From Psammoneis japonica (lineage: Eukaryota): a DNA stretch of 64,000 nt. Below the pieces are notes generated by a model that searched no databases, was not told the origin of the DNA, and was given only the letters and a program-made list of their open reading frames with translations. The DNA is taken from contig QPGO01000024.1 of the NCBI GenBank assembly GCA_008632985.1, positions 573,848 through 637,847 on the forward strand, written 5' to 3'. The position numbers were made by a program, and so were the translations under genes. Below are positions 501 through 49,543 of the stretch, piece after piece (positions within the stretch are counted from its first letter, which is position 1; each line of letters begins with the position of its first letter).

Positions 501-844
501 TGCCACAATGTGCAGTCCAGCCCATAAATTTATGTTGAAAACAACACCGTCAGAGACGCCACCAATGTGACAGATCTCTTTCAAACTTTCCAACACATTG
601 TCACATCTAGAAGCATGCACTGTGGCATGGCCACGGGAACGCACTGAAGATGCCGCCACCGCATCATCATCGTGAAAGTGCCATTTGCGCTGGCCTCACG
701 CAAATTTGAATGAGGCCTGATTGGCGCAACTGCCATTTCAGTGTAGCCCCACGCAATGTCATGCACGTAGAATCCCACACAAGTTTTGTGAACGCATGGA
801 AGGACAGGCCAAGTGCAACCATTTTTTCAAATCTCCACAGTCCA

Positions 845-1658: not shown

Positions 1659-1742
1659 TCGGTCTACTAAGTCAACTACATGTTCCATAGACCTGGGAAA
1701 AAATAGACTGAGCAAATGAAAGAGTCTTAGAGTTGTCTCATT

Positions 1743-19119: not shown

Positions 19120-22100
19120 AGCATTGGCCAAGGCGCGACAAAATGACTCGAAAACTCATCCAGGTGTCGCTCCTGCTCGAATTCTGTCTTGCATTCAAGA
19201 CGGCACGCAAAAGAGAGCCCAGGCTGTGACCAATTCTGAGCTTCTGGCGATGCTTTGCACAATCCTGCCCTCAAGGGCAGGTGATGCAAAGCTTCCCACA
19301 GAACTTGGAGTTGCACCATGATGGCCATTGAAAACTGACCTTTTTTGCAATGAAACAGACTTTTCAAACCTGGCCCATGTTTGAAATGTCTCATGCATGC
19401 TGACAAAAGCAAAATGATCATTTGGAAGCTTCAGAAGTGCTTTGGGCAGCAAAGCCAGGGAGTCCTCAGCTCTTTGTGGGACCTGGGGGGCATTTGCTGA
19501 CACCTCCAATTTAGGATCATCTGACAGGTGCTTGCCTTTGCATTTCATGATGATCTTGCCCCAATCAGCTCTGGACATGAAGCTGCCAATGGATGTGTGT
19601 TCACAATTCCAAGCACATGATTGGACACAAGGAGATGACAGCAAAGGGGCTTGTCTTGCACCACCTGGCTGTGGTCAGGCAACAAGTGAGGTGTGTGCTG
19701 GCACCACCTGTGTTGTGATGGCTCATCTCTCTGGATCAGTCAAGATGTTGACACTTCATGGCTCAGACTTTGGAATTTGCAGATGCTGGGTTGCAGCATC
19801 TGTGTCTGAAAGAAAACAACAACAACAAAAGCTGCTTGTGCTGGCTGATGGCTGCCCATCCAGTGCATCTGCAGCAGAAATGTGCCAGCACACTTGTGGT
19901 GTGCTGGGAGCAGCAATGGAGAACACACCTTCAGCAGCTCCATGTAAAAAATTCACATTTGTGTGCCCTTGATCAGCTTCTTGTGAGAACATCCAAAGAT
20001 CAAAACACCAACAAACGTGTTTTTCTGCAGTGGCCCAAGGGTGCAAAATTCCACATGGTTGAATGTGAGCGGTGCTCCAAAATCAAGACTGCTGTTTTTC
20101 CCATTTTCAACCTGTTGCAGAATTTTGATTGGGCCAAAGGTTTGTCATTCCTTCAACCCATTCTTTTTCAGCTTTTGGCTCCTTTTGCAATCTCTGTGAT
20201 CAAGAAAATGAAAGTCTTGCAGCAAAACCTCTCCAGGTGCAGATGCCATGAGTTGCCCACCCAGCTGCAAAGCTGGTGCTTTGCTGCATCTTTGCTTTGA
20301 TGTGTTTCAGGAGATGCCAGCCACACTGTTGAACATGTGCCAATGATGGATCCTGGCTGCTCACCATCATTGGTGGCATTTTCTCCCACCCTCTTGACTT
20401 GCTGCAATCAGCTCATGATGGCACTTCCTTTTCACCTCAAAATGTCTGAAAAACTTCTTGTTGTTTCTCACAAAATGCATGCTGTGTTTGCAGGCTGCAA
20501 CAATGAATGACTTGCACAGGAGAGCTCACTTTGCCACTGTCCAAAATGGTGGTTGCTGTGCTTTCTGCCAAAAATGCTGTTTCCTGGAACAAAGGGAGAA
20601 AGACAAAAGAAAGAAATGACCAACCCAACAACCTCACATGATTTGTGTGGACCATTGAGTGTTGCCTGGCTGGAAACAACCACAGCCAGAGCTTGCAAAT
20701 CTGGGCACTTGCAGCTCCCTCCATCTGAGCAGCAGCCATTTTGTCACAAACCAGCAGCAACCAATGCCACAAACCTGTCAACCAGATTGGCCTGCAGCGG
20801 CTTTTCTGCAGCTTTGAAATTTTGAAATGTCATGGCGGCTGGTCTCTCTGGCAACTCTCCTGTGAAAAATGCAGGCAGGTGCCTCCTGAGCAAAAAAAGC
20901 ATGGGTGCCTCCAGAAAAAGGAACTGCCTGGCTTGGCTCAGTTGATGCCACTGGCTGCCAACTGAGCCAGCTCTAAAAAATGACTGTTGCAAAGCAAAGC
21001 AAAGCTGGACCATGTCTTTGCCACACATGCTGGTCACCTGCCCAGCAATTCTTGAGATTTTTTCTGTTTCTGCACCCAGCTGCAGTGGCAAAGTAAGGTG
21101 CCCTTGTTCAAATGCCAAAGCATGGTCAAGATCAGAGGAAAGGAAGAAAATCTCTTTGCAAGTCATCAAAATTTCAACATCTTTGCAATTTTCACAGCTG
21201 CCTTTTTGTGCCACACAGATGGCAGTGTGGTTTGTCAATGGTTTTTGATGATGATGGGGTTTTGATGTCAATGGGGCCAGCAGCATTGTCAAATCAAATG
21301 TTGCAATGAAAAGGCAAGGGTGGGTTTCTGTGCATTGTTTTTTGAAGCAGCTGAAAAAATTGTGGTGCCAGCATGTCATCTTTTCAAACAAACAAAAAAC
21401 AATGACAAAAACAAATCCCCAAAAAATCCAAACATGGTGCTCACAACAACAAACAGTTGGGGTGGTCTGGACTGTCAAAAATGGTTTCACACTCATTGTT
21501 GGGGCTTCAAAACAAGGAGAGACCAAACAAGCTTGTTGTGCCAACAGCATGCAGTGCAAACAGCTGCATTGGATCAAACAGAAAGCACTCCATCAAAAGA
21601 GCTGCACTGAGGTTGCGAAAGGAGTGAGTCAACGCAATTGTGGCATGCTTGCAAGAAGTCAAGGTCAGTGCAGTTTGACAAGAAGTGGTGTGAGTTTGGT
21701 CAAGATGTGTGGTCATGACCAGCAGCTTGTGCTTGTCACCAGCACAGCAGGCTGCCCTCATGCAAAGTTTGCCGGAGCTGCCATTTGTTGCCAAGCAGGC
21801 AAGTGCACAAGCTCTGAGCCAGCAACAGGCAGCTTGAGACTGCCCTTCTTTCCAAATGTCAAGAAAACTCTGGAAGTGTTTTTCCTGTTCTCAAAAACAC
21901 CTGGAAATGCCCTTGCCTGCAGCAACAAAGCACCAAGTTTTTGCAGCCCCATTTGTAGAATGCACATGCACACACACCTGGGGCACAGATGTGTTGCAGA
22001 GTTGAACAGGAGCTGCAACAGGCCACCAAGCTGATGGAGTTTGTCCAACAGCTGCAATCAGAAACATGCCAGCCTCTCATTTTGGCTGTTGACCTCAGTG

Positions 22101-25100
22101 GCTGTCTCTCCTTTGCTGGCTTTGTGCCACAAAGGAGTTGGAAAAAGCACCTGCAGATGCTTGCACAAGCAGCGCCGGCACTTTTCTTCCACTCTTTTTG
22201 TTGTCAAGGGGGGGAGGGGGAAGCTGGTGGGATGCACACTGCACAACTGGTCAAACCTTGCTTGCGTCCAAGCTGCTGGGCAGTGCAATCATGAGCAGTT
22301 GCTGGCCATTCAGAGCTTGTTTGACAAGCACAAAGTGGCATCAGCAGCATTGGCAAACTTGTTTCTGCAGCATTGTCAACAGAGATTTGTTGGATGAGCA
22401 AGCTTCCATGAAACTGGAAATCTTGTGTGACAAGCCTTTTTGACAGAAGCTTTTGCTGCTGGGGCCCATCGTTTTCAACACACTGCTGGGAGACAAAGTC
22501 TGGACAGCTGTCTTGTGTGCATGCCAGCTCATTTGCAGGTGCTGGCTCAAAGCCCTGACACCCAGCTTGGATGTGGGAAACACAGGTGGCACATCTGCCA
22601 CAGTTCTGGCTGAGCCATCTCTGCTCTGGTGCTGACATTTGGGCAGCTCCCAATGACCAAGTGTGTGCAACAGTCTCCTCATGCCCTGGAAGCACACTCA
22701 ACTGTGCTCAGCAGCATGAAACATGAAAAGAGCATCAAAACACCAACAAATGCTGTCTTTTTTGAAAAGTCAGAGTGTTGCAGGAACAGATGGGTGCTGC
22801 CTGTTGATCCATGTGTGCTGGCTGAGCACACTGTTGGTTGTCAAAGGAACTGCTTGCCTTCTGTTTTTCCTTTGGCTGTTCTTCCAGAAAATGCAGCAAA
22901 AAGAAGAGATGGCATCAGTCTGTGGCTTTGGAGTTGCAGGTTGGATTTCAAGAGAAGGCATCTGCTGCACCAGCAGAGCCACCTCCACTCTGCAGCTCAT
23001 GCTCAGATTGTCCCCAACAACAAGCAATGGAGCACACATGGCAGCCTTGCCCCTTTGGTCCTTGCAGTGCTCTCAACTGCAGCCTGCATTTTGTTGTGTG
23101 TGCCCAAACAACTGCACACCCAAAAATGACAAACAAACTGGCAGGCTGGTGGCACACAAACTGTTGATCTTTGGCAGATGGACAGATCAACCTCTAGAGG
23201 TCCCCCCACATGGCCACACATTTGCAAGGGTCCAAAAGCCCAAGTTGAAGTGTGCACCAAAAGTGCCAGGCCCCTGCAGTGCACAGGCAGTTGCTTTGTT
23301 TTCAAGCTGCCACAAAGTGCCACAAAAACATTTTTCTCAGCTTTTGAAGCACCTCATCAGATGCCATTCACAGGGTCATGTGCAGCCCCTGCACAGCACA
23401 ATCTTTGGATGGAATGAAAGGGGAAAAAGCATGGCCAGCTCTGAAACAAAACACAAAGATTGTGGCCAGCCATGGCAACAAAGCAGGGCAGGGGAGATGG
23501 CTGCACCAGCTCCGAACATCAAGCACTGCTGCTGCAGGTTTTGCAGCCCATGCTGATGGCATCACATTTGCCAATGCCATTGAGCAACTCCCTGGAGAGG
23601 TCAAAGGCCAGCTTGTTTGGAAAGGAGTTTGCAAGCTGCAGCTTGTTATGGTCATTCTGGCTGACATGCAAAAAGTGGTGGCAGGACATCTCAGCTTCAC
23701 CGTTGTCAAAATTTAAAAAAAAAACCTTGAGTGCCAAGAACAAGCAAGGTGGTGTGCTGTTTGTTCAATCCATTGTTGCCAACATGATGCCATCTCAACA
23801 AAGATGGCAAGAGGTGGCTGGGATTTCCTTCAAGAATTCTTTCAGCTGTCCTGCTCTGGTCTGCCATGCTGTTAACTTGGGAGGGGGAGAAACTCAAAGA
23901 AATGCAAAACATGTTGGGAGCAAATTGAATTTGATGAAGCAAAAGGGGGTGGCAAGAGAGGCAGTGCTCACACTTTGCACCAAGCAAAAGTGTTTGGCTT
24001 GCAACTCACAGGAGCTCTAAAAACATTCACTGCTGGAGCAGCCACCTCTTTGAATGATTTTATCACACCCAGCTAAATGTTTTTGCTTGGTTGAGCACAA
24101 GAGCATGGCTCTCCCAGCAAATTACAATCAAAATGAATGAGGTGCCTTCCCTTTCATCAAATTTAATTTGCTGCTGACACACCTTGTGTTTCTCCAAGTT
24201 TCTGTCCAGAAGCCAACCACAGTGTTTGGACAGAAGCCAATGCATGAAATCCACAAAAAGCCCATGCCTTGAGACATTGTTTGTGTTGTTGGTGTGTGTT
24301 GGTGTGACCTTTTTGGTGGTGACAGTCAAATGAAACCTTGCTTGTTGGCAGAGAAGGCACATTTCATCTGAAATTTGACAATGCAAATTGAGGCCTCCTG
24401 CTGCCTGTTTTTCAAGCCATTTGTCAGGGCCACAATGAGCCTCATCTTGCTGAATTGCAGAATCCAAAAATGCCAAATGAGTTGGCCCTTGGCCTTTGAT
24501 TTGACCCATGTGTCAGTGTGACAAGGATTGAATGTGATGCCATCACTTCAGAATGTGAAATCCACAGTTGTGTTTGTTGTTTGGAGCTGGTGTTGCTGTT
24601 GTCTCCCATGTTTCATGGTGGTGATTCATTTGAAAACAAGTGCTGCACAGGTTGCCTTCATGTGGCAGAAGAAAAGGGGCTGTCAAAGCTTTGTGTGTGC
24701 ACTTGGCTCTTGCCCCAGAATTCTCCTTCTTCTGCTGTGCAATGATGTTTTTTGTTGAGGTTCTCAAATAAATTGGTGCAATGAAATGCTGAGAGAGGCA
24801 GTGGCACTCAACCACGTGACATCGGGGTGGGCACAGCATGCCGAGTCGACAGTGAGGCCAAAGATGGCAGAAATGCATTCTGTCCGTACATCCAAAATTA
24901 AGATTTTGTTGACTACTTCACTTTGATTGTGTTGCATGCCTTGGGTTAGAAAAGTTGCTGTGCATGAGAACGTGTCGGTCGTCAGTGCGCAGATTCGACT
25001 GCAAACGTTGGAGTGACAATGTGCTGCAACTCCACCGCGTCGTGTGGTGGACAACCAAGCACTGTTGGTGCGACTTGAGAGAATGCGAACGATTGACGAG

Positions 25101-25140
25101 GCATGCACCTGTGTCTACCATGCATGTTGATGTTGCAAAA
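19120..25140. mobile_element. TpA/CpG-depleted block; decayed repeat or transposon-derived DNA of unidentified family
   Basis: Same dinucleotide signature as the recognisable retroelement remnants; no intact ORF; family not recognised. Confidence 0.5.
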
Positions 25141-25258
25141 AAATAGTTTGTTTTACACATCATGCTGTTTGTGAGTGGGTAGTAGGTACAGTATTTATAT
25201 ATGATATGGAATAGTTGTTCTTTTGATAAAAAAAATAATGCCATCAGCCATCACCCCA

Positions 25259-27117: not shown

Positions 27118-27609
27118 TACTGCTGTGTTTCATAAGCTGACAACAACATGCCAATCCTCTTACGAGCACTCCATACCACACGCAGATGATGATTCTTACA
27201 TCATGCTGTCGCAACACAACGCGCAACGCCCGCTTGGTGGTATGGTTTGGTCTCGATTTTCGCGGCGCGCCCTCGGATTTTTGAAATTGTATGCAATATA
27301 TAGTGTTTAAAATACTTTCAATACTATATATATCTTGAACATTATTCACCGATTGAATGTCACAAGAGTATGCAATATTCTTCATTTTTGAATAAATAAT
27401 ATAAGAAAAATGGAACTGCCATCCTCGTGGCATGGCCCCATCATTCATTCTTTGCCTCGCTTTACAGTACAGTACCGCCGCATTCCTACAGTACAGCACT
27501 GGCGCGCCCTTACATTTTGAATTTAAAAATAATGTTATTTAGACCGGAATATTTGGAATAAAGTATGCACCTGAACATCTCGTAACCTTACGATTATTAT
27601 ATTTTTAAG

Positions 27610-29090
27610 AACATGTGCGAAAAGTGCACTGCTTTTGTCCTCGCACACACGCGGCGCCTCCACCGGCACCTGCGCTGGAGACATCACCTTTTCTCGCTGC
27701 TGCGCCGAACATCCTGCTGTGCCTTTTTTTGTGTTTGCAATGGAGGGTCAAAACATCACAGAGATCAAATGGAAGTGAGGCTCTGGTTTGGTTGGTGAGA
27801 GCCAAGCCAAACAGCCAACTCTCCAAATCCAAGGACAAGCGATCACGCACCAGCAGCAGCGGCATTGAGCAGACACTCCTCAAATCACCCCCAGAGGCAG
27901 GGTGATCTCATGAGAGCATGCTGGGTCCACACTCAAACCCCCATTCTTGCACTGCAGCTTTTTCCAGGTGCATTGCCCTCATCAATTCAGGTGTTTTTCG
28001 TGCGTCAGACGTGATCTCTTCAAAGAACCTGTGAGAAACTCAGCTCCATGCCTGCTTGCACTAAAGATTTTGTCATCAGTGCTGCAGCTGCCAAGAGAAA
28101 GTCTTGTCATGTGACACTCATTGATCAGTTGCATGGAGTGTTTTGATTTTCTCTCTCATGCAGTCAGAGAGCACACTCCAGCATTCTGCGTGTTTCCACA
28201 CAACTTGTTGGGCTCACCTGCCAAAGCATTCTGCATTCCATCATTCTCCTGAGTCCATGGTTTGCTGACTTGCTGCACCCCCTTGGAAATTTGTCTGCAA
28301 GATGCACCACAAATGAGTCTAATTTCTTGCTTTTGCAGGTTTGGCACCTTTGCATCATTCAGGTGCTGGCCTTGATGATGGGCTCTCAGTCATCCTCTCT
28401 TTTGTTGTGCACCACCAGTGCACGACTTGTCACAGTCAAAACACTTGGCTTGTTGCAAAACACCACACATCTTTCTGCACTCACTGCCACAGACATGTCT
28501 CCCACTGACCCTCTGGAGGAGGCTGCACTGCAGTTGCATGGCAGATCCGTGCAATCTCTTGAGACCAAATGGTCCTCAAGTTTCTGACTCAAAAGTCACT
28601 TTGAAAGATCTCCAGCAGGTTTGAGAATTTGTTGCAGCACATTGAAAACTGAAGCCAAGACAGTCCATGTTTAATGCACAGCTGTTTCAGATGAACAGGG
28701 ATTGGTGTTTCCCAAAAATTGGTCATCCCCAAAAATGCACAGGATTTGCCTTTTGTTTTGGCCCTCATCGTCAGGTTTCCCAGTTTCCAAGTCCTTCATG
28801 GCCTCTGCAGCACCATCCAGAACCTCTCCAAGCATTGAAAATTCATCTGGTGTGATTTTAGCCTTGCACAGGGCTTTCACATGCTCTGGATGTGAATCGT
28901 CAATTGGCGTCTCCTCCGCTTCTGATGTCCTCATTGTCAACAGCCAGTCATTTCATCGCCCCAGACGCAATCGCTTTGAAACATGCCTCAGCACTCACGC
29001 TCCCTTTGTTGAGACATTTCAGTTGTTGACCCGCTTTCAAATGCACGCGAAAGAACAGATCGTCATCATCTGACCAATGCAACTCCACAT
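27610..29090. mobile_element. TpA/CpG-depleted block; decayed coding-like sequence on the minus strand, family unknown
   Basis: Dinucleotide signature; broken protein-like frames on the minus strand (e.g. 28671-28940). Confidence 0.45.
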
Positions 29091-29464
29091 CCAGGTAGGG
29101 GTGACTTAACTGTTATCGGTGCAGCACTCTACACACGCTTTAGGACCTCCCACGGCACTTCCTAACTTCAGTGAACAGAGATTCTTTGTTTTGCATCCAG
29201 GTTTTGCATCCAGCTAAAGGGATATCTAATTTTATACTGCAAAGGGACTAGAATATCCTTTGTGTGTTGTATTCTTGTGCACGAGGAGAGTGCGCTAGTG
29301 CTGCTCTTCCATTTTCTGTTCGTCCTTCCCTAGAAAGACCTTCTCGTTACTTTATGGACACTTCATTCTTTGCCAACGGACTCAATGAAGTCTCCGCTAG
29401 CGAATATGACGTAGGTACGCAGACGGAGAAAAGCTTCGAAAATTCCAAAACCGCTTGCTATAAT

Positions 29465-33599: not shown

Positions 33600-36200
33600 T
33601 GTCTTTTCAGCACTGCTTGTGCTGCAATTGAAATTGGTCTGGCCAATGCTGTCAAAAAGTCTGGTGATCTTCTGCCAGGCCTCAATTTTTGTGTCAGCCA
33701 AGGTTTTGAGCCATGGTTGATTTCTGCTGACATCCTGAATGATGGACTCTCATTTTCCAGACACTTTTTCTGCACCAAACCAATGACTGAGACTTCTGGA
33801 GTTGAGCTTGGCTCCCAAGCTGCACACAAGTGCAAGCTGGCTTGGCAAACACTCTGTGCACAAGAGCAGCTCTTTGAAACCACACAGTGACACAGCCACA
33901 ACTTCAAGAAGCTGCTCTCTTGTCACTCACTTGCTGCCAGGCTGCAGCAGATGCCAAGCTGCCTTTTCATCAGGCACGGCACTCTCTTGGCACCCAAGTG
34001 CACCATGCTCCTTGTGGCAACTCAGCACTGGCTGCATGCATTGGGCAGCACCTTGAGCATCCAGTTTGTCACTCCACCCATGAACCTCAGCTGGCTGCTT
34101 CTGTGCACAGTTTGTTTTTGCAGATTCTTTCAGTGAGCACAAACCCAGGATGTTTTGGCCACTCTCTTGGCCAACCAAAAGCACTGCAAATGGCCAGCTT
34201 GCTGTGATGCCATGCACATGCTTCCATCAATTTTTTGGGCTGCACAGCAGCACAGTGCTTCTTCTGCAAATTGTTGTTTGCACATGGATTTTAATGCCAT
34301 GATGGAGCACCACACTGCCCTTCTTGAGCTCAACAAGGAACACACCCCAGAGATCCTCACCCAAGCTGACTTGAGCAGTTGCAGAGTTGTGACTCCCTTG
34401 CACCAATTTGCTGGCTCTGCTTTCTTGACAAAGCTGATGGATGGTTCCAGCCAGGTGTTGATGACATTTGCAAGTCTGCTGGCTTGAGTGCAGCATCATC
34501 CTGGGCCATGATGCAAGGAGAGCAAGCACTGTGGGGACTTTTGCTCACCGGCCCAAATGGTGCATGAGAAAGTTTGAGCAATCAGGACAACTCCATGAGC
34601 TCAGCACATTTGGCAAAGTCATCAAGCACTGCATGATGCCACAGCATTGCAGCCACACTGGCAGTGCAATCTCAAACAAGATGGCACCCATTGATCTTTG
34701 AAGTGCTGCAATGGCTCACCACACACCACACCTGTTCTGTGACACTTGTGTTTGACACACTCATTGTGTGGTGTCTGGCAACTCAATCTAGAGGATGTTT
34801 TGTGCCCTGGTGGCTGTGCTGGGCTGCTGCATTTTTGTGATGGGGGGGGTCCCCCAAATCTTCTCACGCCATTTTTCTGGTGGTTGATGATCCCATGCCA
34901 CATGGTGCAAAACCTCAATTTGGCATCAATCTGGGTTGTGCAGTTGTCTTGAAGGTGCAACATGCTCTCCAAGGGTGCCCCAAAGCTGGTGTTTTTTGGA
35001 AACAGGGTGTCAACAGCATCTTGCTGGATGCAACGACTCTTTTGTTCTATGATGATGCTCACAACAAGTGTGTGCTCATTCTGCTGCCTTTGATGGCAAG
35101 AAAATTCTCCTTCTGTGGAAGGTGGGTGATTTTTTCATCACATGTTTTGACAAATGTTGATTGCAATGGTGACATGTGATTGGGAGGAAAAAGCTCTCCA
35201 GCACCCTTCTGATGATTCTCCATCACCACTGAAGTGTCTTTGTCTGGAGATTTTCAACAATGGCCTCAATGTTCATCAGTGCAATGGCTTGATCAGTGCT
35301 GCATGCTGCAGCCACATTGACTGCATTTTTGTGTTGCATGGGTGGGAGAATCCAGCTGCAGGTGAGCCAACAATGGACTTCAAGGCAACTCCCACATTGG
35401 TCAAGTTCATTTCTGAATTGTGCACTGATGTTGCTTGGCCCCGCTGAAGATTGTGCATCACAATTGGAAAGTGATGAGTTGGCCCAGGCCCAGGCCCAGG
35501 CCCAGGCCCAAGGCTTTGTGGCTGTTGTGCCCTGCTTGGTGAGCTGTTGTGTGCTTGCATCATTTGTCATCTTGGTGCTGGACATGTTGCCACAACACTG
35601 TCCAATGTTTCCACTGCTCCAGCTCTTTCACATTGCAATGCTTTGCCCAGGCAGGTCCACCTCCTTGCCCCTTTGAATGCCCTGCAAAAAACTCAAATTC
35701 ACCAACTTCACCACAGCTGCACACACCCATCAGCTTCTGGCAATGACCTGCAGAGTTGTGTTGCTGCCCAGGACAGCATGGGCACACATCAGAAGGAGCA
35801 GTGACTTCATGCCAGTGCAAGATGCACAGTTCTTGGTCATGGTGACAAGTTCTGAGGAGATGGAATCTTGCGCACATCTGGTGTTGCAGCCAAGCACATC
35901 TTGTGTCTTTGTCATGTCCCTCACAAGTTGGGATTTTCTCTAGAGGGACATGCTCCCACACTCACCAACACCAAGTTGGTGGTCAAAACCATCAACCAGT
36001 CTGTGTCCCAGCTGGGCACTCCTTGTGCCACATTGATGCTCAACTCTTTGCAATTTAAGAGCAGAAAGAGGCTGGTGAGGTTGTCACTCAACATGTCTCT
36101 GTGGCATCATCAACTCAGCAATGACCTTTCCAATGCTTTGGGTTGGATGCTGCATGCCAGACATGTTTGGAGTGCTGTTGACAGCCCATTTTGTGGGTGC
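33600..36200 (+). mobile_element. Ty1/Copia (CoDi-like) pol remnant with RT and RNase H
   Basis: LKQDGT..CCNGS (~34671), VLKVQHALQGCPKAG..W (~34945), NGLNVHQ..HGW, GELLCACIICHL..GHVATTLS (~35538), DLSNALGWMLHARH (~36123); many stops and frameshifts; 5' limit approximate. Confidence 0.85.
35481..35510. repeat. (GGCCCA)5 microsatellite inside the Copia RT remnant
   Basis: Read directly from the sequence. Confidence 0.9.
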
Positions 36201-39200
36201 AGTGCTGCTGGCTGCACACTGCCCTTTGTTGTTTGTCATTTGTGCTGGGCCTGTTGTCATTGGAATTTTCACCCAGTCTGACTTTGTCATCACACTGTCT
36301 TTGGATGATCTGCATCATTCATGGTTGGGCATTCTTGCAGATCATGGTCAGATTAACCAGAAGCAATGGACAGACCACACCTTGGACAGAGATGAGTGCA
36401 GATTTCTTTTGAGCTGCTTCCTCTTCTCACTCTTTCTTGCTGTCACTCTTGATGCCACAGCCACCAGTTTGCAGAGAGCTTGCACACTTGTTGATCTTGC
36501 TGTCACTGCCATGTTGCTTGAGTTGCCAGCAGAGCTCCAGGAGAACACTTCCTGGGTGTGGGGGTTGTCTGAAAACTTGCTCTAATCACAACATGAGCAG
36601 CTCATGTCAGGGTCAAAGTGAGTGTGTGAGGCATCAACTGTGGCAACCACTTTTGTTTGATGTGCTTCAAGTGATCTGAGTCTTTCAGCTCATCATCTGC
36701 CAAGACAATGAAGTGAGCCATTGGCGCTGTTGTTGGAGCATGCACCCTGAAAAAAGCTTTCTGCACAATTGTTGCAATGCTTGCAACATGATCAATGGGG
36801 TCATGTGTCAATGGCAAGATGTGTTCCTTGATGAGGCACTTCCAAAGAAGGTGCACAACATTGTCCTTGCTTTGGGTGTGGCCAGTGTCATGAAAAAGTT
36901 GCAAGTTGAGAGTCTTGCCACTGCCATCAACTTGCAAGATGATGTGTCCATGGACTTGTGGGCCTCTGGATGACTGTTGTGCACATGAAACTTGATGTTG
37001 AGAGTGCAACAAGGGCATCAACAGCATCCTTTCCTCTGACAATTGGTGCCATGGTTGAGGTGTTCAAAAAAGTTTGATGTGCACACACAGAACAGCGTGC
37101 ACAATTCAACAACTTTTGCTTGCCCTGGCTCTGAGACTTTGGATTTTGATGGTCAGGCCTGGTGTCATCCTGGCTGCTTCTGGTTCTTTGCAACCACCCA
37201 GGAGCATGTGCTTGTTGGTGCTTGTGCAAGATGCCAACCAGAGATTGCAGGCCAATCTCAACAAATTTGAGCAACTGATTTCTCAAATGATGACAAGGCA
37301 AGTGTTTGGGAGAATCTCAGCAACACACACCACTGTTCTGTTTTCAAACCAATCATTTTGTTTCACCTGCATGTCAGCTTCAGTTGGGCAAAAATGGAAG
37401 CAAGTTCTGCAAGGCAAGAAAATGAGCAAGAGCCATCATGAAAGCTGCCAACCAAGACAAAGAAAGGGCACGCTGATTGTCTGTTCCATCTCTCATGGCA
37501 TCACTGCACATCTCCAGCAACAGAGCATTGTCCCCACTGCTCACATCAAACAGAATTAGCATGTCAAGCATGGGCAGGAAGCAATGAGTGATGAACCAAA
37601 ATCTGGATTGAGTGTCCACAAAACACCTCTAACTTGCAGGGGACCAATTGAAAGTTGTTGATCACAGAACATGCCAAGGATCAGTCTCCCAATTTGATGA
37701 CTTTGGAGCAGGTTGCAAACAAGGTGTGCTGGTCAGTGGAGCATGAGTTTTTGTGTGTCTTGACATCTTCTTTTTGTTCATGTCATCTCCAGCAGGTGGA
37801 AAGTCAGGAAGCAGATCCAAAATTTGTTGCACCAACTTCTTGCCTTGAGTCTTGTCTTCTGTTTGCTGCAAAATCTTTTCTGCACTGGCATCCCTCCCTT
37901 TGTTGTTTGACCATCCATGTTTTGTTTGCTGGAGCAGCAATCTTGTTGAGCATGTCATCCTTTGGAGTGTTTGGCTCTTGAGAACAGGGTGGACTTCTCA
38001 AAGGGATTTTTTGGACTGCTTCTTTTTTGCCATTGATTCTTCCTTTTGTGCCAAATGCACTTTCTCTTGACCTTCCCTCTTGGTCAAGTCACCATGACAC
38101 TGTGGCACAAGCCATGCAAAAATTCCTGCATCTGTTCCTTTTGCACCTTCTTCCCATTAAGAATTTTTCAATCCTTGTTCACTCCAATGTGCACAAAAGG
38201 AACAATTGAGTTGCATGCAGTGCGCACCTCCTGCTTGTTGTGACTGACAAAAAGGGACACAACATCTCTTGACTTTGTCGTGGAATGGTGCATCGGGAGT
38301 GACTTGTTTCAATGGGTGGCTGACACACTGAATCCAGTGATGTGATCATTTGACTGCAAGTTGTGTGCCCTAAATTGGCTCACAAGATGGCAAAGCAGTT
38401 GAATGCCACCATGAAAGCACAAAAATTTGCAAGCATGTCAACTCCATTGTTGTTGCAATTGATGAATTTAGATCATTTTTTGTTGCTTGCAGCACAAAAA
38501 GTTTCTTTGTCACTTGGTTTGGACAAGATGGACCGTGCACTGCTGCGTCACTTCAACACTGTTTTTGCATGTTGCATTTTGCTTGTTCAACAAACAGATG
38601 TGTGAGGAATTCTGTTAGACACCACTTTTCAGCATTGTTTCATTGGGTTGTTGGTGTGACATGAATCTTGTTGTGCATCATTGTGCCCCTGTTTTTCTTC
38701 ACAATGTTGCAATTTCATGAAAACAACAGGTGTGTTGATGGACGCAGCTGACCCAAGCACACAACAGCATGCAAAGCATTTGGTGCATTGTTTTTGTCCT
38801 CATCAATTTCACACAATGCACTGCATCATTGACCCTTTGCTTCTGTCACTTGGAACAAACAACCAAAAAACCAACAACACAAGGTGCACTGTCGTCAACA
38901 GCAAAAAAATCTACATTGACATGCTGCCACCATGTTGAATGCAGAGCATTGTGTTGCCACCCCACCATCACCCAGCAGGTGGTCCTCCACATTGTCATCC
39001 CATGCATGTTCTCTTTTTTGGGTTCTTTCCACAGCGATTCTGTCATTTGTTCATTTTGTTGCTTCTTTCCTTTGCCGTCAGCTGATTTTTTGTTTTGCTG
39101 TCAAACAACGGATCACACCTTTTCTCAAGCAGTTTTCTGCCAGTCAGGGCATCTTCAACAATGGCCATTGCAAGCAGCTTGCTCATCTTTTCATCACAAG

Positions 39201-41299
39201 TGAGTTGGCTTGGGGTGGAAAAACCTGTGCTCACTCTCAATCAGGGACAGTCATGCCATTGACCCGGACAACATCAATCAGCACAAAAGAATTTTTGGGC
39301 AATTCGGCCCAGCTCCTCTTCTTGTTTTTCAGGCATTTCACCAACTGTCACCATCATTTGCAGGACAAAGTGTGCTTCTGTCATGTGCATGATGTTTGAA
39401 ACCATCATGCCAAATGCACCACAAGGTGACCACCCAGCATGTCAACTGCAAAATGTGCATTGTCAAAAACACACTGACCAAATGCTTGCACCTCTGAGCA
39501 TTTTGGCATGTGTTTTCATTTGTCATGTGAGAGCAGAAGAAAGATTGGTTTCTGCCTTTTTTTGCTGTCACTGTCTGGTGTTTTCCATTGCTTTGCACAT
39601 TGACACCAGCGGCTGTTGTCTTCATCAGGGTCTAGACCCACAATGCAGAGAGAGAGAGCAACTTGATGAAAGCATGATTGACAAACTCACAAGCACAAAG
39701 AGGATCATCCAGCAGGCATGAAAGGACTGGGCAGTTTTGCAAAATGGCATTTCCATCTTGCTTTGGCTCACAACTCACAACTCTGCCACAAATCCTTTCT
39801 TGATGAAGAATGTCACCCAAAAGGAAACTGCAATGTGTTGTGGCTCTCACAAACCCATGATCATTTCCAATTGTTGCACAAGCAATGGGTGGATTGGATT
39901 GGCAGTGAAGCAGTCTGCAAAGTGCAGTCTTTACAATGCAGCAATGATTGGCAATGACAATGCAGCCAGTCTTGTTTGTCTGCATTTGGAATGAAACCAA
40001 ATGGGTGCCAATGACAACAACAGCAGCAGCAAGCACCTTCTCAAATTCTGGCAAGTGAGTGCATGAGTGGCTGCTCCATCTCAAGCAGATTGACAGCATT
40101 GACACTGGTCTTGTCAGAATGATCAACAAGGAGGGCATGAAAATTGGGTGCCATTGCCTGAGCATTGGAGCCACTCTCTCCATCCCCCATGTTTTGACTT
40201 TGAGGCAAGAATTGCCAGCCACCTTGCATTCTTGCTTGGAAGCGAATGTCACACCACTGCCAATGGGAGCATCAGAATGTCCCTGGGAGGAGGCACATGT
40301 GGAAACCACATGTCATCTGGATTTGCCAGCTGCTTTGAAAGATCACAAAAGACTGGCTCTGTGAAAAGATCCCACAGAGTTTCAGCAAAGCCACAGACTG
40401 GGAATGGTGTGGGAAACAACAGTGTTTGGGTCCATTCTTCTGTTGGTTGATGGAGTTGCTGTGCTCCATCACAGCAGTCACAGTGCAGGGAAGAGGGACA
40501 TTGCAAAAAGCTCAAGAAGCTGCTTTGTGGCCATGGCAGCAGCAGCGGAATGCTTTGTCAAATCCAATTGCTTCTTGGCATGCTTTTGGCAAACTGTTCT
40601 TGCTGCTTTGTCTGTGAAGTTGTTGTCACAACAGGCCAATGACAAAGATGCAAAAGGCAAGCCACAGACATGATGCTGGGTGAACACACAGGGGGGACAT
40701 CAAAGTGCTCATTAGAGGCAAGATTGCGTGCCAGCCCCAGTGGGTTCTTGGGATCAAAGGAGGTGTTGGCAACCAAGTCATTGTTGGGAGAAGGAGGAGA
40801 TGTTGCAGCTGCCCAACAAGAAATTGCAGCAGGGCCCCAGGCACTGTCAAGAGAGGCAGCAGCACTGAGCTCAGGAACACCAAGAACAGCACTTTTGTTG
40901 CCAAGGGCAGAAATGCCATTGTCCACAAACAACACAAATTGACAAGCATTCACAGTGGCTGCCTTGGCAGTGGCAGAAAAATGTCCAGAGCATCAGACAG
41001 ATGAAGGGCATGCACTGTTTGCAACTGCAGTGTTGCTGTCAGCAGTGTCATTGTCCAAATGTGGTGGAAGGAGGTGGAGATCTGGATTTGAGATTTGAGT
41101 GGACCTTGGGAGGGAAGGTTTGGGTGCGTTGTTGCCAAAACCAAGCACAGATGGCTCAGCATCAAATTTGCAAATGGCAACATCTTCAGAAGAGGAAAAG
41201 AAACAGCAGCTGGTGTTGTAAAGAAGCACCCTCCTTCTCACTGCAGGGTGCACACTTCCAGAGATGCTGGGCAATGTTGGAAAGGAAGTCAACTCACCG

Positions 41300-44200
41300 C
41301 CAGTGGGGACATCAGGGTCAATCAGAAAAAGACCCAACAGATGAGACAGAGACAGCATGATGGGGAAGAAAAAAAGCAACCAAAATCCAACCAGACAAAG
41401 ATGCTGCATCTGTTCTTGAAGATGTCTGTGTTCCAAGAGAAGGCAGGGAAGCAGAAGTGGTGCAGCAACACAAAAGGTGGTGCTCCATGTGATTTTCCAA
41501 GTCAAAACCAAGTTGTCCAACTGGTCAGACCAAGTCCAACATCACAGTTGGTGGCAAGATGACAAGGACAAAGACCATGTTTGGAACCAAACCCAGAACA
41601 TTTGTGCTGGGAACACACAAGACCTTCCAACTGCACAATTGCCTGTGTGGCCTGACAGAGAAAGTTGCACACACTGATCAGGTGACAAAACAGCACAATG
41701 CAAATGTGAATCACACCACAGGGCACAAAATGGATGGTGCAGGGCCAGAGCTGGAGAATGCCGGCCAACTGTCAAACACGTTGGAAGAAACTTGTGACTT
41801 GAGCAGGCACCTGACCTTTGCAGAAAAGGCATTTTCTGACAGAGAACAAGCTGCCTGGGAGGGCATGGACACTTGGAACTCTTGCAGATCCAAATGCATG
41901 TGAGCCAGAGGGCTTGGATCTAAGAATGAGTCCATGGTTGCAGGGTGTCCACTGAAGCTGGCAACAGCTGAAAGGCACGCACAATTGCAGTTGGAAGGAT
42001 CACCACCACATGATGTTCCATTGTGATGGTTCCACCAAGGGCCGTGTTCGCTGTTGTTGCTGATTGCCATGACCAATCTGACAAGTGCTTGACCAATTGA
42101 GATGTGTGTGCTCAAAAGGATTGAACAAAGAAGACAAGACAAAGAAAGCAGCTGCCAAGAGATGGGCAAAGAGGAGAGGATCTTGATGAAAGATGACATT
42201 TTCTTGCACCATGCCCACGCATCAGCATCTGCCATCTGCAATGTTGGTGCTTCGTGCTTGCTGGGAAGACTGCAACAAACAATCTGTGGCTTGTGCAGAT
42301 GAGGCTGAGTGCAAGATGCTGTCAAAGAGCTGGTCCTGATCAGTCAGTCTCAATTCAGGCAAGCTTTCAATGACACTTCTGGGTCAATCATGATTGGATT
42401 GGCTGCATCCAAGAATGCGCTGAAAAAGCTTCAGGAGCCGGGGCAGTGCAGGGATCAACATGCACAACAGAACAGGATCCACATGCTGCTTGGGTTGTGA
42501 GGGAAGCAAGTGCAGAGCAAGTGGGACCCACCCTTGCAATTGGAGGCAAACAAGGGAAGGTGTGGGACTTTGCTGCAAAGTGCACAGCTGTTGACCTTGA
42601 GAGTGCTGACCAGACTGTTGGTTGGAACTGATTTTGCCCCATTGAGGTGGCAGTGCTGTGACAAGACAACAAGCCACATTCCATCATCATTTTGTCTGGG
42701 CAATGTTCCACTGCAAACACAAACAGCAGCAGCTCCATCCACCAATGCTGAAGAAAATGAGATGGGACATCGTCAAAATCAAACAATTCATGAATGCCAT
42801 TGCAGTCAGCAAGCCAAGTGAACTCTCAACCAAACAATGACTTCTTCTGCTTGGGGAACACCCAGCGGCCAACTGATGTCTTGCCTGCACAAGAGTGGCA
42901 TGATTTTTCTGATGCAGTGGTGGCACGCACAACAAGAAGACTGTTGGTCTCAGAGGAATGCCCCCGGCCATTGCAGATCAAAAAAACATGGACCACCTTG
43001 AATTTCAGCAAGCTCAGCTGCTTCAGCCAAGCAAACATTGGGATTGGCCTGGAGCAGGGGGCTGCTCCCACTGCATCTTTGCTCCAATTGGTCTTGACAT
43101 GGAATTGCCAGCTGCAATCTGGTCAAGCTAAAACCAGACCCAACAAAACATCCTGCCAGAATCCAGCAAAGAATGCTCATTTGACATCTGGTTCCATGGC
43201 ACCAGGTCCTGGTTGTTTTGCTTGAAGCTGTCTAAAAGGAGTCAATCTCACTTCAAATCATTCTTTCCAGTTTTGGCAAAAACTGAATGCAGCAATCAAC
43301 ATGCAAAGGCTGCCCCTTGTTTTGGGCAGAGGCAAGGATTGGAGTGCATCAAGCTTGGTGTGAGCTGGAGAGCTCCCATCCTCACAGATGTCAAGCCCTG
43401 CAAATTCCACTGTTGGAGACAACCACTTGCATTTCTTGAGCTTGGTGGTGATGAAGTGGTGCTGGAGCACCTTGAGAACAACCTCAAAGTGTGGGAATGG
43501 CCATTTTGTCAAGGGCACAAAATGTGTGCAGTCATCATGATGACTTTGGAGCTGCAAGGTTGAATGACAAAGCAGACACCAATGCCATCACAATCAAGAT
43601 CTGGGTGCTTGTCAAAGAATTGAGCTTCTTGTTCTTTTTGCAATGCGGCCATCATGGCAACAAAAATTGCACGTGCATTGACAAAGCCCATTGGCATCAC
43701 ATTCCAGCAGCTTTTGCCTTTGGGAGCAAAAAACGCCATCTTTGCTCTTGGTGCCTTCTCAAGCAACACTTGCCAATGACCACAGTCAAGATCAAAACTG
43801 AGAAAAACTTGGCTTGTGGCAGGATGTCTTGCACCACATTGTCAAACCAAGGTGTGTGGAAGTTGAAAGGATGAGTGACCTGATTCAACCTGTGGCAAGA
43901 GACACAAAGGCACCAAATGCATTGGTGCCATGGCATGTTTTCTTGATGTGGTTTTGCAGCCAGAATGACAAGGGCTCCCCAAGGGCTCTCGGCATCACAA
44001 AAAATCAAATCATTGTTTTCAAGATGATCCAAGAGCTTTGCCATGGTGCAAGACTTGTGGGGGGCACATTGAGGCAGCTTGCAACACACTGGAACTACAT
44101 CCCTGGTGTCAATCTGACACAAGAAACCTGGATGTGTTTTCTCAGCCCTTCTTCATGAAATGCAGCCACAATCTTTGAACATGACTTCCATGCCAACTGG

Positions 44201-47200
44201 CAGGTCCAGGCAATCACCCAGCTCCATGTGATGTGATGGCAACTTTGGGCACCAGATCTTCTCAGTGGTGCGATCAGCACCTTGTAAATTTGGTGATGGC
44301 TTGGATGGAAACAAAGGTTTGAGCACATCAGTTGCTGGACTGGTTTGATCAGCAACAAGGACAGATGAAGATGCAGATGTGACAAACTTGCAATGTGATC
44401 TTGTGGAATCAATGAGAAATGCAGACGGCATGGCCCACTGCCACAGCAGGCCTTGGAATGTCAGCATTGCACTTGCACATGGATTTGACAAGCAAAACAA
44501 AGATTCCAAGGTCAGACCAGAGAACAACTCTCATTCATGCAGCTCAATCCCAGGGACAAAGTTGTGCTCTGGATTTGGTGCAAGCAGGTCCTCACGTTGA
44601 GCCAGCATGAAGAACTCCAACAAATTGTCAAAGACAGCACATGCTTGGTTGACCAAAAGTTGCCATTCAGCTGCCAGTGCCACAGAGACCTTGACTTCAA
44701 CCTGAGCTTGTTCAATGGCTTCAGATGCAGGTTTCTACCATGTCAAGTCAAGCAGGCAGGGAAGAAGCATGAGCACCTTGTGAGCCTGCACCTCCCATCA
44801 AAGGCACTTGGTCTGCTTGATGCAGGATTTGACAACAAACAGGGAATGCATGACCAAGGCATTGGCACAACAGCATGTCTTCTGACTCACTGTGCATGAA
44901 GAGAATGCTGTTGGTGGCTTGCACGAGTGGCAAACTTAAAATTGTGTTGGCAGATGCTGATTTAACTGACAAACCAAATGAAGCCATCACATTCTGGGCA
45001 CTCACCTTGAAAGGGGTTTTGTGGGCAATGACTGTGACAACTCAGGTCACATCACCATTTTCATTGACACCTCCAACAGAAAACTCAAGGTTGTCCATGT
45101 CCTTGATGTGCTTGAAGGTTTCTACAATGTCAGGATTTGCCTTGCAAATGCTCTTGTGGTGCACTGGACATCCCAGGCTGAGTCCAGTGCAAGTGTCAAC
45201 CATGGCGGTGTTCAGGGTGGCTTGGTGCTTGGTGCCAACTGGGAAACAAATGTGAGCACAACTCAGCTTGCTCTCCTGATCAAATCCTGGGCACTTTTGC
45301 TGATGCTTCCACAACTTGAAAATCAATCAGCAATGGGAAACAAATGAAATCAGCGCTGCCTGCACCTTGTCACAACGTGTCACCTGGTGGTTGTGGGGGA
45401 CAAACCAGAGCAGTGTGACCCCATTTGTCATGCAACAGCAACAAGCAGCACACCGTTTGAGTTGCATTTGAAGTTGATGGGTTGGCAATGGACACAACAA
45501 GATCTGCCATCTGTTTGGAGGGGTGTCCATCTTTCTCCCATGAGGAATGAAAAAACATGCAGTGCTGCTGGAAGCTTGTGCAGCATTGTCTAAAGATCCA
45601 TCTTGTGACAGAGCGCTGAGAGGAGGAATGCCCCACGGATGTTTGGCTGGAGTCAGAGAGGAAGCATTTGCTTGTGCTGCCAAATTGCCATGATGAGGAC
45701 AACTGTGCCAACAATGAAAACACTCCTTGTGGAATGACTTGTGACCTGTGCATCCCCAGCACTCAACAAGAGGAAATGATGTGATGGGGCAGCTCATTGC
45801 ATGGCATCCTCTGCTGCACTGAGGAGCACAGACGTGAGCATGGAAATTTGACACAGATCATCTGCATTGTCAATGTTGTCCATGCCCTTGCTTTGAACTT
45901 GTGTTTGGCCACTCTGCACTTGACATGTGACAGGGTCCTTGGGATGACAATCATGTTCTGAGTTTGGGACAGTGGCAAAGGCTTGGGCACCTGCATCAAT
46001 CAGATGGGAGCAAGAGCCTTGTGCACTGGAACGCAATGCAATGCCCCAAGCTCTGTTCACCTCTCAGCGCACTTGCAAAATCTGGCACTCTTGAGTGTTG
46101 GTCTTGTTGGGTGGTCTTGCAGGATCACTGAACAGAGGATCAGCCACTTCTCCTTGATCCATTGAGTTCTGATCCAAAGCAGAGTGGAAAACTTGTGGCA
46201 GGTCAAGAGTGAGCTGGCAATCTGGCACAACATGCTGACCCGCTTTCAGAAAACAAGGCAGAAATCTTCTGTGTTGCAGTGGTGTGGCTGTCCATCCACC
46301 ATTGCAGTTTGTTCTAAGTGCAAAACAGTGTCCACAATCTGAGCATCCATGACAGTGGCTCCACTGAGGAACTCCACTTTAGTGCGCTCTCACAAGAGAC
46401 GCAGTTTGCAGTCAAAGAATTGCTCACTTGAAACAAAGCTTGGCCAGCAGGATGGTTCAGAATGCCCAGTGTCGGAAAGATGCTGCCAAGATGGGCCACA
46501 CAAGCATTCAATGTGGCTTGAGGATCACACAAAACTGCTGCTGTCAATGCTGGAAGCAGCAGCTCTGATCCATCATCTAGATGAGTGGGGTCGTTTATGA
46601 CAGGCCAGGTGTTGGGAGCTGAGCGGCCACTGGGAATGTTTTGGCACTCAAGCAAGCAGTGCTGAGGACATCAGGGGCCCAATTGAAAGCCAGAGCGGCA
46701 TCAATTGTGAGGTCAAAAGTGCAGAACTTTGCATTGTGGCAAACATTCTGGACAAATGGGGGAGGAGGTCCCTGCCGGATTGGGGGTTGCTGGGAAGTTG
46801 AGTGCGCCACCCCTTTCTGTGCAGATCATTGGGCTGCTGAACAGAAGCATCCCAGCTGGGGCTCCTGGCACAGTGACAGGAACATCCAGCCCAGCTGCAT
46901 TGTCACAAAGGCATCATCTGAGTGCGCTGTTGCCTCACCAGACAAGTGATTGATGGAAAGCATGAACTCAGAACATTGTGTTTGGTGGTGAGTGCAGGTG
47001 TGCATGGAGTTGCATTGATGCTGCTGACCATCAAACAACAGGAGTGCTATCTCCACAGAGTTCTCTGGCACTGCAGTGCAAAGATTCGCAAGTTTCTGTG
47101 GCAGGTTGAAGGTGCACAAGCCCCGCTGCACCTGTTCTTGGGTGATGACGGCGAGGGGGTCATTGCGACAACGGCCACCTCCCCTCCCTGCACAAAGTTG

Positions 47201-47341
47201 AGCCGACATCACAACAAGGCAAACAAGCAGAAAAGGTCGGGGTTCGACTTGCAGGGTGGGATGTAAAGACAACTGCAACACAGGAAGTCCTGTCTCTCGC
47301 ACGTCATAATGGATGACTGACTGACGGACGCTGTCGTTACA
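41300..47341 (-). mobile_element. Ty3/gypsy LTR retrotransposon remnant (gag knuckle, protease, RT, RNase H, probable integrase)
   Basis: Domain order on the minus strand: CWGC..H..CP (~45700), MVDTCTG protease (~45190), SPWGALVILAAKP..CLCVSCHRLN, AFFAPKG..VMPMGFVNA, KLKKCKW..VEFAG (43300-44100), EFTWLADC..QHWWMELL (~42750); candidate LTR start TGTAAC at 47341; 3' limit approximate. Confidence 0.88.
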
Positions 47342-49497: not shown

Positions 49498-49543
49498 NNN
49501 NNNNNNNNNNNNNNNNNNNNNNNNNNNNNNNNNNNNNNNNNNN
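49498..49543. other. Assembly gap (46 N)
   Basis: Run of N. Confidence 1.

Follow-up and report, generated by a model that had tools for sequence, protein, structure and literature searches.

Near-complete loss of TpA and CpG by transitions in discrete blocks of a diatom chromosome

Five blocks and their genomic setting

The stretch of DNA analysed here (referred to as the window) comprises 64,000 nucleotides of contig QPGO01000024.1 of the diatom Psammoneis japonica (NCBI GenBank assembly GCA_008632985.1, positions 573,848 to 637,847 of the forward strand), and carries, between genes of ordinary composition, five hypermutated blocks in which the dinucleotides TpA and CpG (TA and CG) have largely given way to TpG and CpA (TG and CA). 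All findings reported below concern this one 64-kb window and one sample. An original prediction, made from the letters of the sequence, had claimed that five TpA-free, CpG-poor and TpG/CpA-rich blocks lie beside normal genes, and this was confirmed by observed/expected (o/e) counts, by 500-bp windows and by change-point fits.

Together the five blocks cover 27,234 bp, which leaves 36,720 bp of the window outside them. Within the blocks TA was found only 80 times (o/e 0.04) versus 1571 times in the rest of the window (o/e 0.63), and CG 218 times (o/e 0.13) versus 2081 times (o/e 0.98). Based on the dinucleotide shares of the flank (4.18% for TA and 5.69% for CG), approximately 1,140 TA and 1,550 CG would have been expected in the blocks. 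TG (n = 3145, o/e 1.82) and CA (n = 3162, o/e 1.89) were enriched compared to the rest of the window (o/e 1.14 and 1.12, respectively), while the GC content was nearly equal (48.9% in the blocks versus 48.0% in the rest of the window). In the block cores TpA made up 0.24% of all dinucleotides. When 500-bp windows were considered, TA o/e ranged from 0.00 to 0.14 in the core windows, several windows of the blocks had no CG at all, and none of the windows lying wholly outside the blocks had a TA o/e below 0.34.

The four pyrimidine-purine (YpR) dinucleotides taken together remained steady (23.97% in the flank versus 24.26% in the core), and core and flank had identical 2-, 3- and 4-mer spectra once the sequence had been recoded into purines (R) and pyrimidines (Y). 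Because both the YpR total and the R/Y spectra are unchanged, transitions from TA and CG to TG or CA are all that sets the blocks apart from ordinary DNA. Neither AA/TT (8.04% in the core versus 7.55% in the flank) nor AT was depleted, and the core/flank ratio of AAA/TTT was 1.27.

The TA edges obtained from the change-point fits fell within approximately 40 bp of the block coordinates of the original prediction. The domains are discrete and their edges are sharp to about 100–300 bp, foreign origin being established for the retrotransposon remnant at 41729–45767 only (see below). At six of the nine internal edges, the TA-free zone was 80–300 bp wider than the CG-depleted zone (19120/19250, 24815/25115, 27610/27710, 28895/29095, 47085/47260 and 61210/61290). 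The TA and CG edges coincided at 30965/30970, and the opposite order was found for two edges, 1500/1755 and 59350/59425. Compared with the CpG process, the TpA process may thus reach further or proceed faster.

The copy number and base calls of the blocks were assessed with DNA run X1, of which the Logan k-mer contigs (k = 31) were compared with the window over positions 15000–34000. Since X1 is possibly the assembly's own sample, it supports base calls and copy number and does not stand for an independent individual. The k-mer depth of X1 was 56–67 in blocks and flanks alike, except for one bin with a small high-copy element, and one X1 contig of 12,926 bp, which spanned block 2 and reached into the genes on either side, differed by 12 substitutions over 12.6 kb. 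Because their depth is the same as that of the flanking genes, the blocks are single-copy, and the bases noticed by the original prediction thus held at the read level, with the X1 contigs reproducing the blocks at flank depth. A further run (X2, recorded as 'DNA?') gave contigs that were genic only, including a 107-bp GT..AG joint at 17666–17774 in a flanking gene, and resembled an RNA library.

All blocks are intergenic, with no more than a few hundred bases separating their ends from the adjacent reading frames. Long open reading frames (ORFs) in the flank correspond to UTP20, a START-domain protein, frataxin and a Na/H exchanger. Among the 120 matches listed for the exchanger, its best relatives showed 57–73% identity, and every named one was from a diatom (including Nitzschia, Odontella, Fragilaria, Pseudo-nitzschia and Epithemia), indicating that the window is nuclear diatom DNA. 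In block 4, AT and GC skew flip near 40 kb. Self-BLAST of the window yielded only six high-scoring segment pairs, all of them inside 1–1660, and no repeats between blocks. Self-BLAST in R/Y code contributed nothing beyond short matches and, within block 2, two inverted repeats of small size. The sole gap of the window, consisting of 46 N at 49498–49543, is located in DNA of normal composition.

Table 1. Hypermutated blocks and associated features in the window (positions are those of the window).
Feature	Position	Strand	Evidence and remarks
Hypermutated block 1	1..1500, runs off window start		TA/CG depletion, TA change point at 1500; holds the 116-bp and 348-bp tandem repeats
116-bp tandem repeat, two copies	216..457	+	Ancestral YR steps resolved differently
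348-bp tandem repeat, ~2.4 copies, across the edge of block 1	844..1660	+	Outer copy keeps TA/CG
Hypermutated block 2	19120..25115		TA/CG depletion, change points; X1 contig across, depth ~61
Hypermutated block 3	27610..29095		TA/CG depletion, change points
Heterozygous edge stretch of block 3, alleles separated by 4 YR-type events over 132 bp	27763..27894		Two 132-bp X1 contigs
Hypermutated block 4, probably composite, length 16.3 kb	30970..47260		TA/CG depletion, change points
~200-bp high-copy element in block 4, internal palindrome	32886..33086		X1 depth; 4 TA and 6 CG retained
Decayed Ty3/gypsy-type long terminal repeat (LTR) retrotransposon coding region (gag/pol remnant)	41729..45767	-	tblastn, tblastx
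Reverse transcriptase (RT) C-terminus and RNase H frame (P0121)	42391..43593	-	phmmer; 5 TGA codons read through as X
Hypermutated block 5	59425..61290		TA/CG depletion, change points

Direction, strand symmetry and sequence context of the changes

Four independent lines polarise the change as running from TA and CG to TG or CA. In the 348-bp tandem repeat, through which the edge of block 1 passes, the outer partial copy (1535–1660) has TA and CG at sites where both inner copies have TG or CA. Where the inner copies disagree with each other, the copy proximal to the edge retains TA or CG.

The two copies of the 116-bp tandem repeat showed 84.9% identity in DNA and 99.2% in R/Y code. Their 13 differences consisted of six TG<>CA doubles, three CG<>TG/CA, one TA<>TG/CA, one other transition and two transversions. 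All intra-window duplicates together (654 aligned bases) displayed 20 TG<>CA doubles, 8 TA<>TG/CA and 8 CG<>TG/CA differences, next to 37 other transitions and 31 transversions that came mostly from one poorly aligned inverted repeat. Because the duplicates show 20 TG<>CA doubles in 654 bases, the mutations arose in situ and independently in each copy.

Two pairs of inverted repeats are present at the right end of block 2 (23490–23620 with 24473–24606, and 23888–23946 with 24145–24203). The arms of the shorter pair are 96.6% alike in R/Y code, and both pairs together carry 14 TG<>CA doubles between their arms. Five surviving TA lie at 24018–24164, between the arms of the shorter pair.

Both strands were mutated equally and independently. 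The TG-CA skew ranged from –0.004 to +0.046 across three core segments, and the TG and CA counts were near-equal in every 1-kb bin of the retrotransposon remnant, without a consistent strand excess. Strand-coordinated runs of TG or CA were not found, and no autocorrelation appeared at any lag tested.

The TA and CG sites that survived in the blocks were far from random in their context. Of the 57 surviving TA, none were in RTAY, 19 in mixed and 38 in YTAR context, versus 435, 800 and 266 in the flank (p = 7e-20). When the 134 surviving CG were sorted by whether none, one or both of their strands had a 5′ T, they numbered 104, 30 and 0, versus 948, 903 and 191 in the flank (p = 6e-12). The core/flank ratio was 0.01 for ATA/TAT, 0.02 for GTA/TAC, 0.09 for CTA/TAG and 0.12 for TAA/TTA. 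TCG/CGA was at 0.03 of its flank level, versus 0.11–0.15 for ACG, CCG and GCG, and no TCGA sites remain, while TC outside CpG was the same as in the flank once the loss of TCG was allowed for. A simple reading of these data is that the preferred targets are the A in 5′-T-A-Y and the C in 5′-T-C-G. The bias in outcome (TG versus CA) predicted by this reading was seen in GYRA (p = 3e-4) and AYRA (p = 3e-3), and was not significant in the other four contexts tested, which included CYRC and the mirror context GYRG.

A decayed retrotransposon and allelic differences

The right part of block 4 contains the coding remnant of a Ty3/gypsy-type element, which was matched over 41935–44128 by tblastn with intact polyproteins and over its full extent by tblastx with 39 related loci. 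The P0121 frame within it aligned by phmmer with intact polyproteins of 1,785–1,933 amino acids (carrying RVT_1, RT_RNaseH and Integrase_H2C2) with an E-value of 1e-52 and 41% identity. At codon columns regarded as conserved (agreement of at least 8 of 13 intact homologs), none of five Tyr was kept, three having become CAY (His) and two TGY (Cys), and only 3 of 16 Arg were kept, with 9 of the 16 now reading TGY, TGG, TGA, CAA or CAT. Retention was much higher for Lys (6 of 7 columns), Trp (6 of 8) and His (4 of 4). When alignments to five reference polyproteins were summed, so that one query position counts up to five times, the window had His or Cys in place of Tyr at 31 of 43 positions, versus 448 of 5,669 for the other 145 matches pooled. 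As Tyr is encoded by TAY only, the working ancestor of this element cannot have been free of TA.

Relatives of the element confirmed this. The original prediction had pointed to intact relatives that are equally TpA-free as evidence that would speak against it, and all 39 related metagenome loci had normal TA, with an o/e of 0.45–0.76 for TA and 0.68–1.18 for CG. None of the 39 contained a 1-kb window with a TA o/e below 0.25. These loci were found by a peptide pattern that favours intact copies, and thus show that the family is not natively TA-poor, whereas hypermutated copies may exist elsewhere.

Pfam gave no match for the P0121 read-through at E-values up to 1 except a DnaJ motif (0.82). 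For the stop-to-stop ORFs from blocks 2 and 4 (n = 35), it gave nothing relevant, the single match there being MamL-1 (E-value 0.006). Only one match was obtained when the mutated read-through served as the query of a word-index protein search. A search for the LTRs of the element in R/Y code was not significant, with a score of 180 against a shuffle maximum of 185.

Three groups of fragments occur among 150 gypsy-pol relatives: P0169 and P0258 are free of Tyr, with His or Cys at Tyr positions, and have their Arg kept; P0250 and P0239 have lost both Tyr and Arg; and in P0173 and P0194 Tyr is kept and Arg has changed to Cys, His, Gln or Trp. These protein sequences hint that TpA-only, CpG-only and combined decay are all present in other genomes.

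Differences between X1 and the window were subsequently scored, leaving out seven rows in the high-copy element (32925–32956) and one further row. Over 10.5 kb of blocks there were 24 differences, of which 6 were TA<>TG/CA, 6 CG<>TG/CA, 4 TG<>CA doubles, 3 other transitions and 5 transversions, and 8.5 kb of flank contained 5 differences. Since events other than YR-type changes were about equally dense in blocks and flank, the excess of differences in the blocks is wholly of the YR type. Two of the five flank differences (17056 and 27497) were also TA<>TG or CA<>TA, one of them 113 bp outside block 3, which, given the small number of events, may be coincidental.

At the edge of block 3, the heterozygous stretch was represented by contigs with depths of 34.6 and 28.0, the sum of which equals the single-copy depth. 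Its alleles differ by TG/CA, CA/TA, CG/TG and CA/TG. As each allele is ancestral at some of these sites, the two haplotypes decay in parallel. By hand count, 5 of 117 leftover TA/CG sites in the compared parts of the blocks (4.3%) differed between the window and X1, compared to approximately 0.06–0.08% of other sites, so that, as an indirect figure, leftover sites differ approximately 60 times as often as other sites. The presence of allelic TA/TG, CG/TG and TG/CA differences shows that the process is recent or ongoing.

The high-copy element in block 4 stood out by its X1 depth, which was approximately 2,600 for its bin and up to approximately 12,700 per site, and X1 contigs stop at its ends. 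One X1 contig joint jumps 201 bp, from 32885 to 33087, and the insertion may be absent from one of the haplotypes. We read this element as a young insertion.

Known systems and possible explanations

The original prediction stated that no system of this kind had been described. This no longer stands in view of a preprint on TpA-only hypermutation of silent viral DNA in the chlorarachniophyte Bigelowiella natans (B. natans; Mettrop et al., bioRxiv 10.64898/2026.01.13.699255, April 2026). Of the 302 nuclear point mutations that arose in 15 mutation-accumulation lines, 231 were located within two regions of integrated viral DNA. All but one of these (230 of 231) were A>G or T>C, and the GC-biased ones were all on TpA. 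The rate was approximately 6e-7 per site per generation, or approximately 1000-fold over background. The larger region was single-copy and transcriptionally silent, and only some of the lines were affected. The B. natans genome was further reported to contain 124 clusters of TpA-poor, CpA+TpG-rich windows, and in a separate analysis reverse-transcriptase and DDE domains were over-represented among TpA-depleted coding sequences. It is proposed by the authors that an ADAT2-like adenine deaminase acts on DNA (bioRxiv 10.64898/2026.01.13.699255).

The diatom blocks are like these regions in that TpA changes to TpG on one strand and to CpA on the other while other A:T contexts are spared, in that the domains are discrete and single-copy with normal neighbouring DNA, in that the TpA-poor, CpA+TpG-rich clusters of B. 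natans show a comparable long-term footprint, and in that the process appears regulated or intermittent, as seen here from an unmutated young insert within a block. However, the targets in B. natans are giant-virus and virophage inserts in which TpA still makes up 3.3% and 9.2% of dinucleotides, whereas the diatom block cores are near saturation. The host here is a diatom (Stramenopila) instead of a rhizarian, and the RTAY and T-A-Y rules are not reported in the text of the preprint. Moreover, the rate was measured there in mutation-accumulation lines, while activity here follows from sequence, alleles and homologs.

The blocks also recall repeat-induced point mutation (RIP) of Neurospora, in that mobile DNA has been ruined by dense transitions in a dinucleotide context. 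RIP is an RID-dependent genome defence that changes CpA to TpA by dense transitions, thereby creating TpA and lowering GC. In the blocks, in contrast, TpA is destroyed, CpA is in excess and GC is unchanged, and these blocks are single-copy, with an unmutated repeat copy adjoining mutated ones. The second phase of immunoglobulin somatic hypermutation, in which MSH2/6 and Pol eta act with hotspots at WA (W being A or T), similarly couples C deamination and A:T>G:C mutation in one domain, but here AA is untouched and no transversions accompany the process. Hyperediting by ADAR, a metazoan enzyme family acting on double-stranded RNA, shares the A>G change with a 5′ U/T preference. Unlike in ADAR hyperediting, the changes reported here are in DNA, on both strands, and occurred after insertion.

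As to the loss of CpG, a study on diatom methylation (Hoguin et al. 2023, PMC9998398) describes diatom transposable elements as CG-methylated via DNMT5, and diatom DNMT4 enzymes as related to the RIP enzyme RID, with a function that is not known. The changes from CpG to TpG or CpA reported here, confined to transposon-type DNA beside unmethylated-looking genes, are like the CpG decay of methylated transposons, and the signature of decaying 5-methylcytosine is present in the depletion of CG, in Arg CGN codons changed to TGN or CAN in 9 of the 16 columns and in the six allelic CG<>TG/CA sites. Unlike in such decay, TpA is lost as well, and the CG o/e of 0.13 together with the T-C-G bias exceeds ordinary decay. 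In Pucciniomycotina, a RIP-like TpCpG hypermutation of transposons was inferred to be repeat-dependent (Horns et al. 2012, PMC3318451). TCG/CGA is likewise the most depleted CG trinucleotide of the blocks, which is a likeness of signature only, as the other process is fungal, inferred to depend on repeats and without an A:T>G:C component.

On balance we consider it probable, if by no means assured, that the blocks are silent inserts subject to CpG decay in situ together with TpA hypermutation of the B. natans type, for which an adenine deaminase is our preferred agent. The blocks would then be silent, gene-free inserts in a diatom chromosome, with at least one of them being a dead Ty3/gypsy retrotransposon. 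After insertion, two context-specific transition processes would have run almost to saturation, in place and on both strands. One of these would be the expected decay of methylated cytosine, turning CpG into TpG or CpA with a strong preference for T-C-G. The other would be a separate A:T>G:C process that turns TpA into TpG or CpA in the same domains, operating best at 5′-T-A-Y-3′, erasing RTAY completely and still being active. Its chemistry might be the conversion of adenine to hypoxanthine in the DNA of silenced chromatin, with hypoxanthine being read as G, and the responsible agent might be a TadA/ADAT-like deaminase or another deaminase with a cytidine deaminase (CDA) fold.

Adenine deamination is preferred because the changes obey a strict dinucleotide rule, AA is spared, a 5′ T is required and B. 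natans offers a precedent. A 5′-T requirement is common to tRNA adenosine deaminases. As the TpA process is co-extensive with the CpG decay, it would be tied to silent chromatin. The data themselves establish the signature, its direction, its origin in place on both strands, its context rules and its recent activity. We infer in addition that the blocks are silenced or methylated, that the process is linked with that of B. natans and that a deaminase is involved.

The core of the original prediction, being a second, domain-restricted A:T>G:C mutator acting at TpA on top of CpG decay, is thus upheld by the polarised comparisons, the relatives with normal TA, the read support and the alleles. 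Its description of the targets as silenced repeats fared less well, as the part concerning repeats is not supported by the single-copy depth, by the finding of just one gypsy remnant or by the unmutated outer repeat copy, and a silent or foreign-DNA domain fits better than a repeat. More speculatively, and with a rather low chance of being right, a single 5′-T-directed deaminase (ADAT2/TadA-like) could hit both the A in T-A-Y and the (methyl)C in T-C-G, whichever the strand of the silenced foreign DNA, as part of an ancient chromatin-targeted defence that diatoms and chlorarachniophytes share, that is widespread among algae of the SAR group (stramenopiles, alveolates and rhizarians) and that lies behind much of the 'dark' repeat DNA of these algae, which defies annotation.

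Among the alternatives, a thymine mark is a serious rival, although we deem it improbable. A TET/JBP-type dioxygenase would make 5-hydroxymethyluracil (5hmU) or 5-formyluracil (5fU) at TpA in silent chromatin, and mispairing of these bases with G would yield T>C changes as the cost of an epigenetic mark, just as loss of CpG is the cost of 5-methylcytosine. In dinoflagellates 5hmU prefers TpA, and 5fU mispairs. Being self-complementary like CpG, TpA could hold a symmetric and maintainable mark, and both the strand symmetry and the shared domain edges of TA and CG loss suit a chromatin mark. In addition, 5hmU is abundant in dinoflagellates, which also belong to the SAR group, and its enzyme is reported to silence transposable elements (PMC11572971). 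The B. natans authors nevertheless favour deamination of A, and the context, which can be written equally well as R-T-A or T-A-Y, does not discriminate between a modified thymine and a modified adenine. It is also rather unlikely that the loss of TpA is a by-product of repair, with T:G mismatches triggering non-canonical mismatch or long-patch repair in which a Pol eta-like polymerase writes G opposite T at TA, as had been suggested by the original prediction. The losses of TA and CG occupy the same domains, and the TA-free zone extends beyond the CG zone at six of the nine edges by a distance resembling a repair patch, but this offset is reversed at two edges and nil at one. The WA hotspot of Pol eta should, moreover, have depleted AA, yet AA/TT is slightly more frequent in the core than in the flank, and TA has been erased more fully than CG, the supposed trigger. 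These findings weaken the Pol eta candidate, as does the B. natans process, which is virtually without C>T (210 of 211 and 20 of 20 changes being A>G or T>C).

The remaining alternatives place the changes before insertion, or deny them altogether. Editing of retroelement RNA or cDNA in an ADAR- or APOBEC-like manner, followed by insertion of the hyperedited copies, would agree with the retrotransposon in one of the blocks and with the 5′ U favoured by ADAR (as stated in the Discussion of the B. natans preprint). We regard it as very unlikely, since the TG and CA outcomes are strand-equal and uncoordinated in the gypsy remnant and elsewhere, repeat copies and alleles diverged by the same changes once in place, and the gradient passes through the tandem repeat at a block edge. 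A technical artefact, arising from modified bases that are miscalled by long reads or from polishing errors, seems even more improbable. Although methylated motifs do give systematic miscalls in long reads, the k = 31 contigs of X1 reproduce the blocks at flank depth, including the long contig across block 2 with its 12 substitutions, and neither the amino-acid pattern nor the clean half-depth alleles look like miscalls. The chance that the inserts were always without TA and CG, whether by native composition or by selection such as the avoidance of nuclease sites, is close to nil. Some viruses and phages do avoid dinucleotides, but a functional RT needs Tyr codons and the conserved Tyr are all lost from the remnant, every one of the related loci has normal TA and CG, and both dinucleotides are still present in the outer repeat copy and in the alleles. 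Native composition is already ruled out for block 1 and for the gypsy remnant.

Several points weigh against the account based on CpG decay and adenine deamination in silent inserts. The high-copy element retains TA and CG although it lies within block 4, so that the process would be either not instantaneous or not constitutive. The run that backs the bases may come from the assembly's own sample. The 3′-Y preference and the outcome bias were derived from one 24-kb sample, and the outcome bias is modest. Of the 27 kb covered by the blocks, only approximately 4 kb could be assigned to a transposon, and a candidate gene for the enzyme was not found within the 64-kb window. Finally, the B. natans regions lack a C>T component, and neither CpG nor diatoms are mentioned in the text of the preprint, so that the TpA rule is the only basis for equating both processes.

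Searches of an open-access library yielded no account of TpA loss or of RIP-like mutation in diatoms. Within the reach of these searches, this is the first diatom case of TpA hypermutation, and it is saturated and combined with CpG decay. It comes with new and testable rules, according to which sensitivity is highest at RTAY and T-A-Y, YTAR resists change, neither strand is favoured and AA is spared. Standard annotation may miss such elements in diatom genomes, given that Pfam was blind to an RT remnant which phmmer matched at an E-value of 1e-52. Diatoms carry out a large share of ocean photosynthesis, and the evidence for TpA-directed hypermutation has until now come from a single preprint on one rhizarian alga. 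A saturated footprint in a diatom, together with allelic activity, would make TpA hypermutation a possibly widespread form of genome defence.

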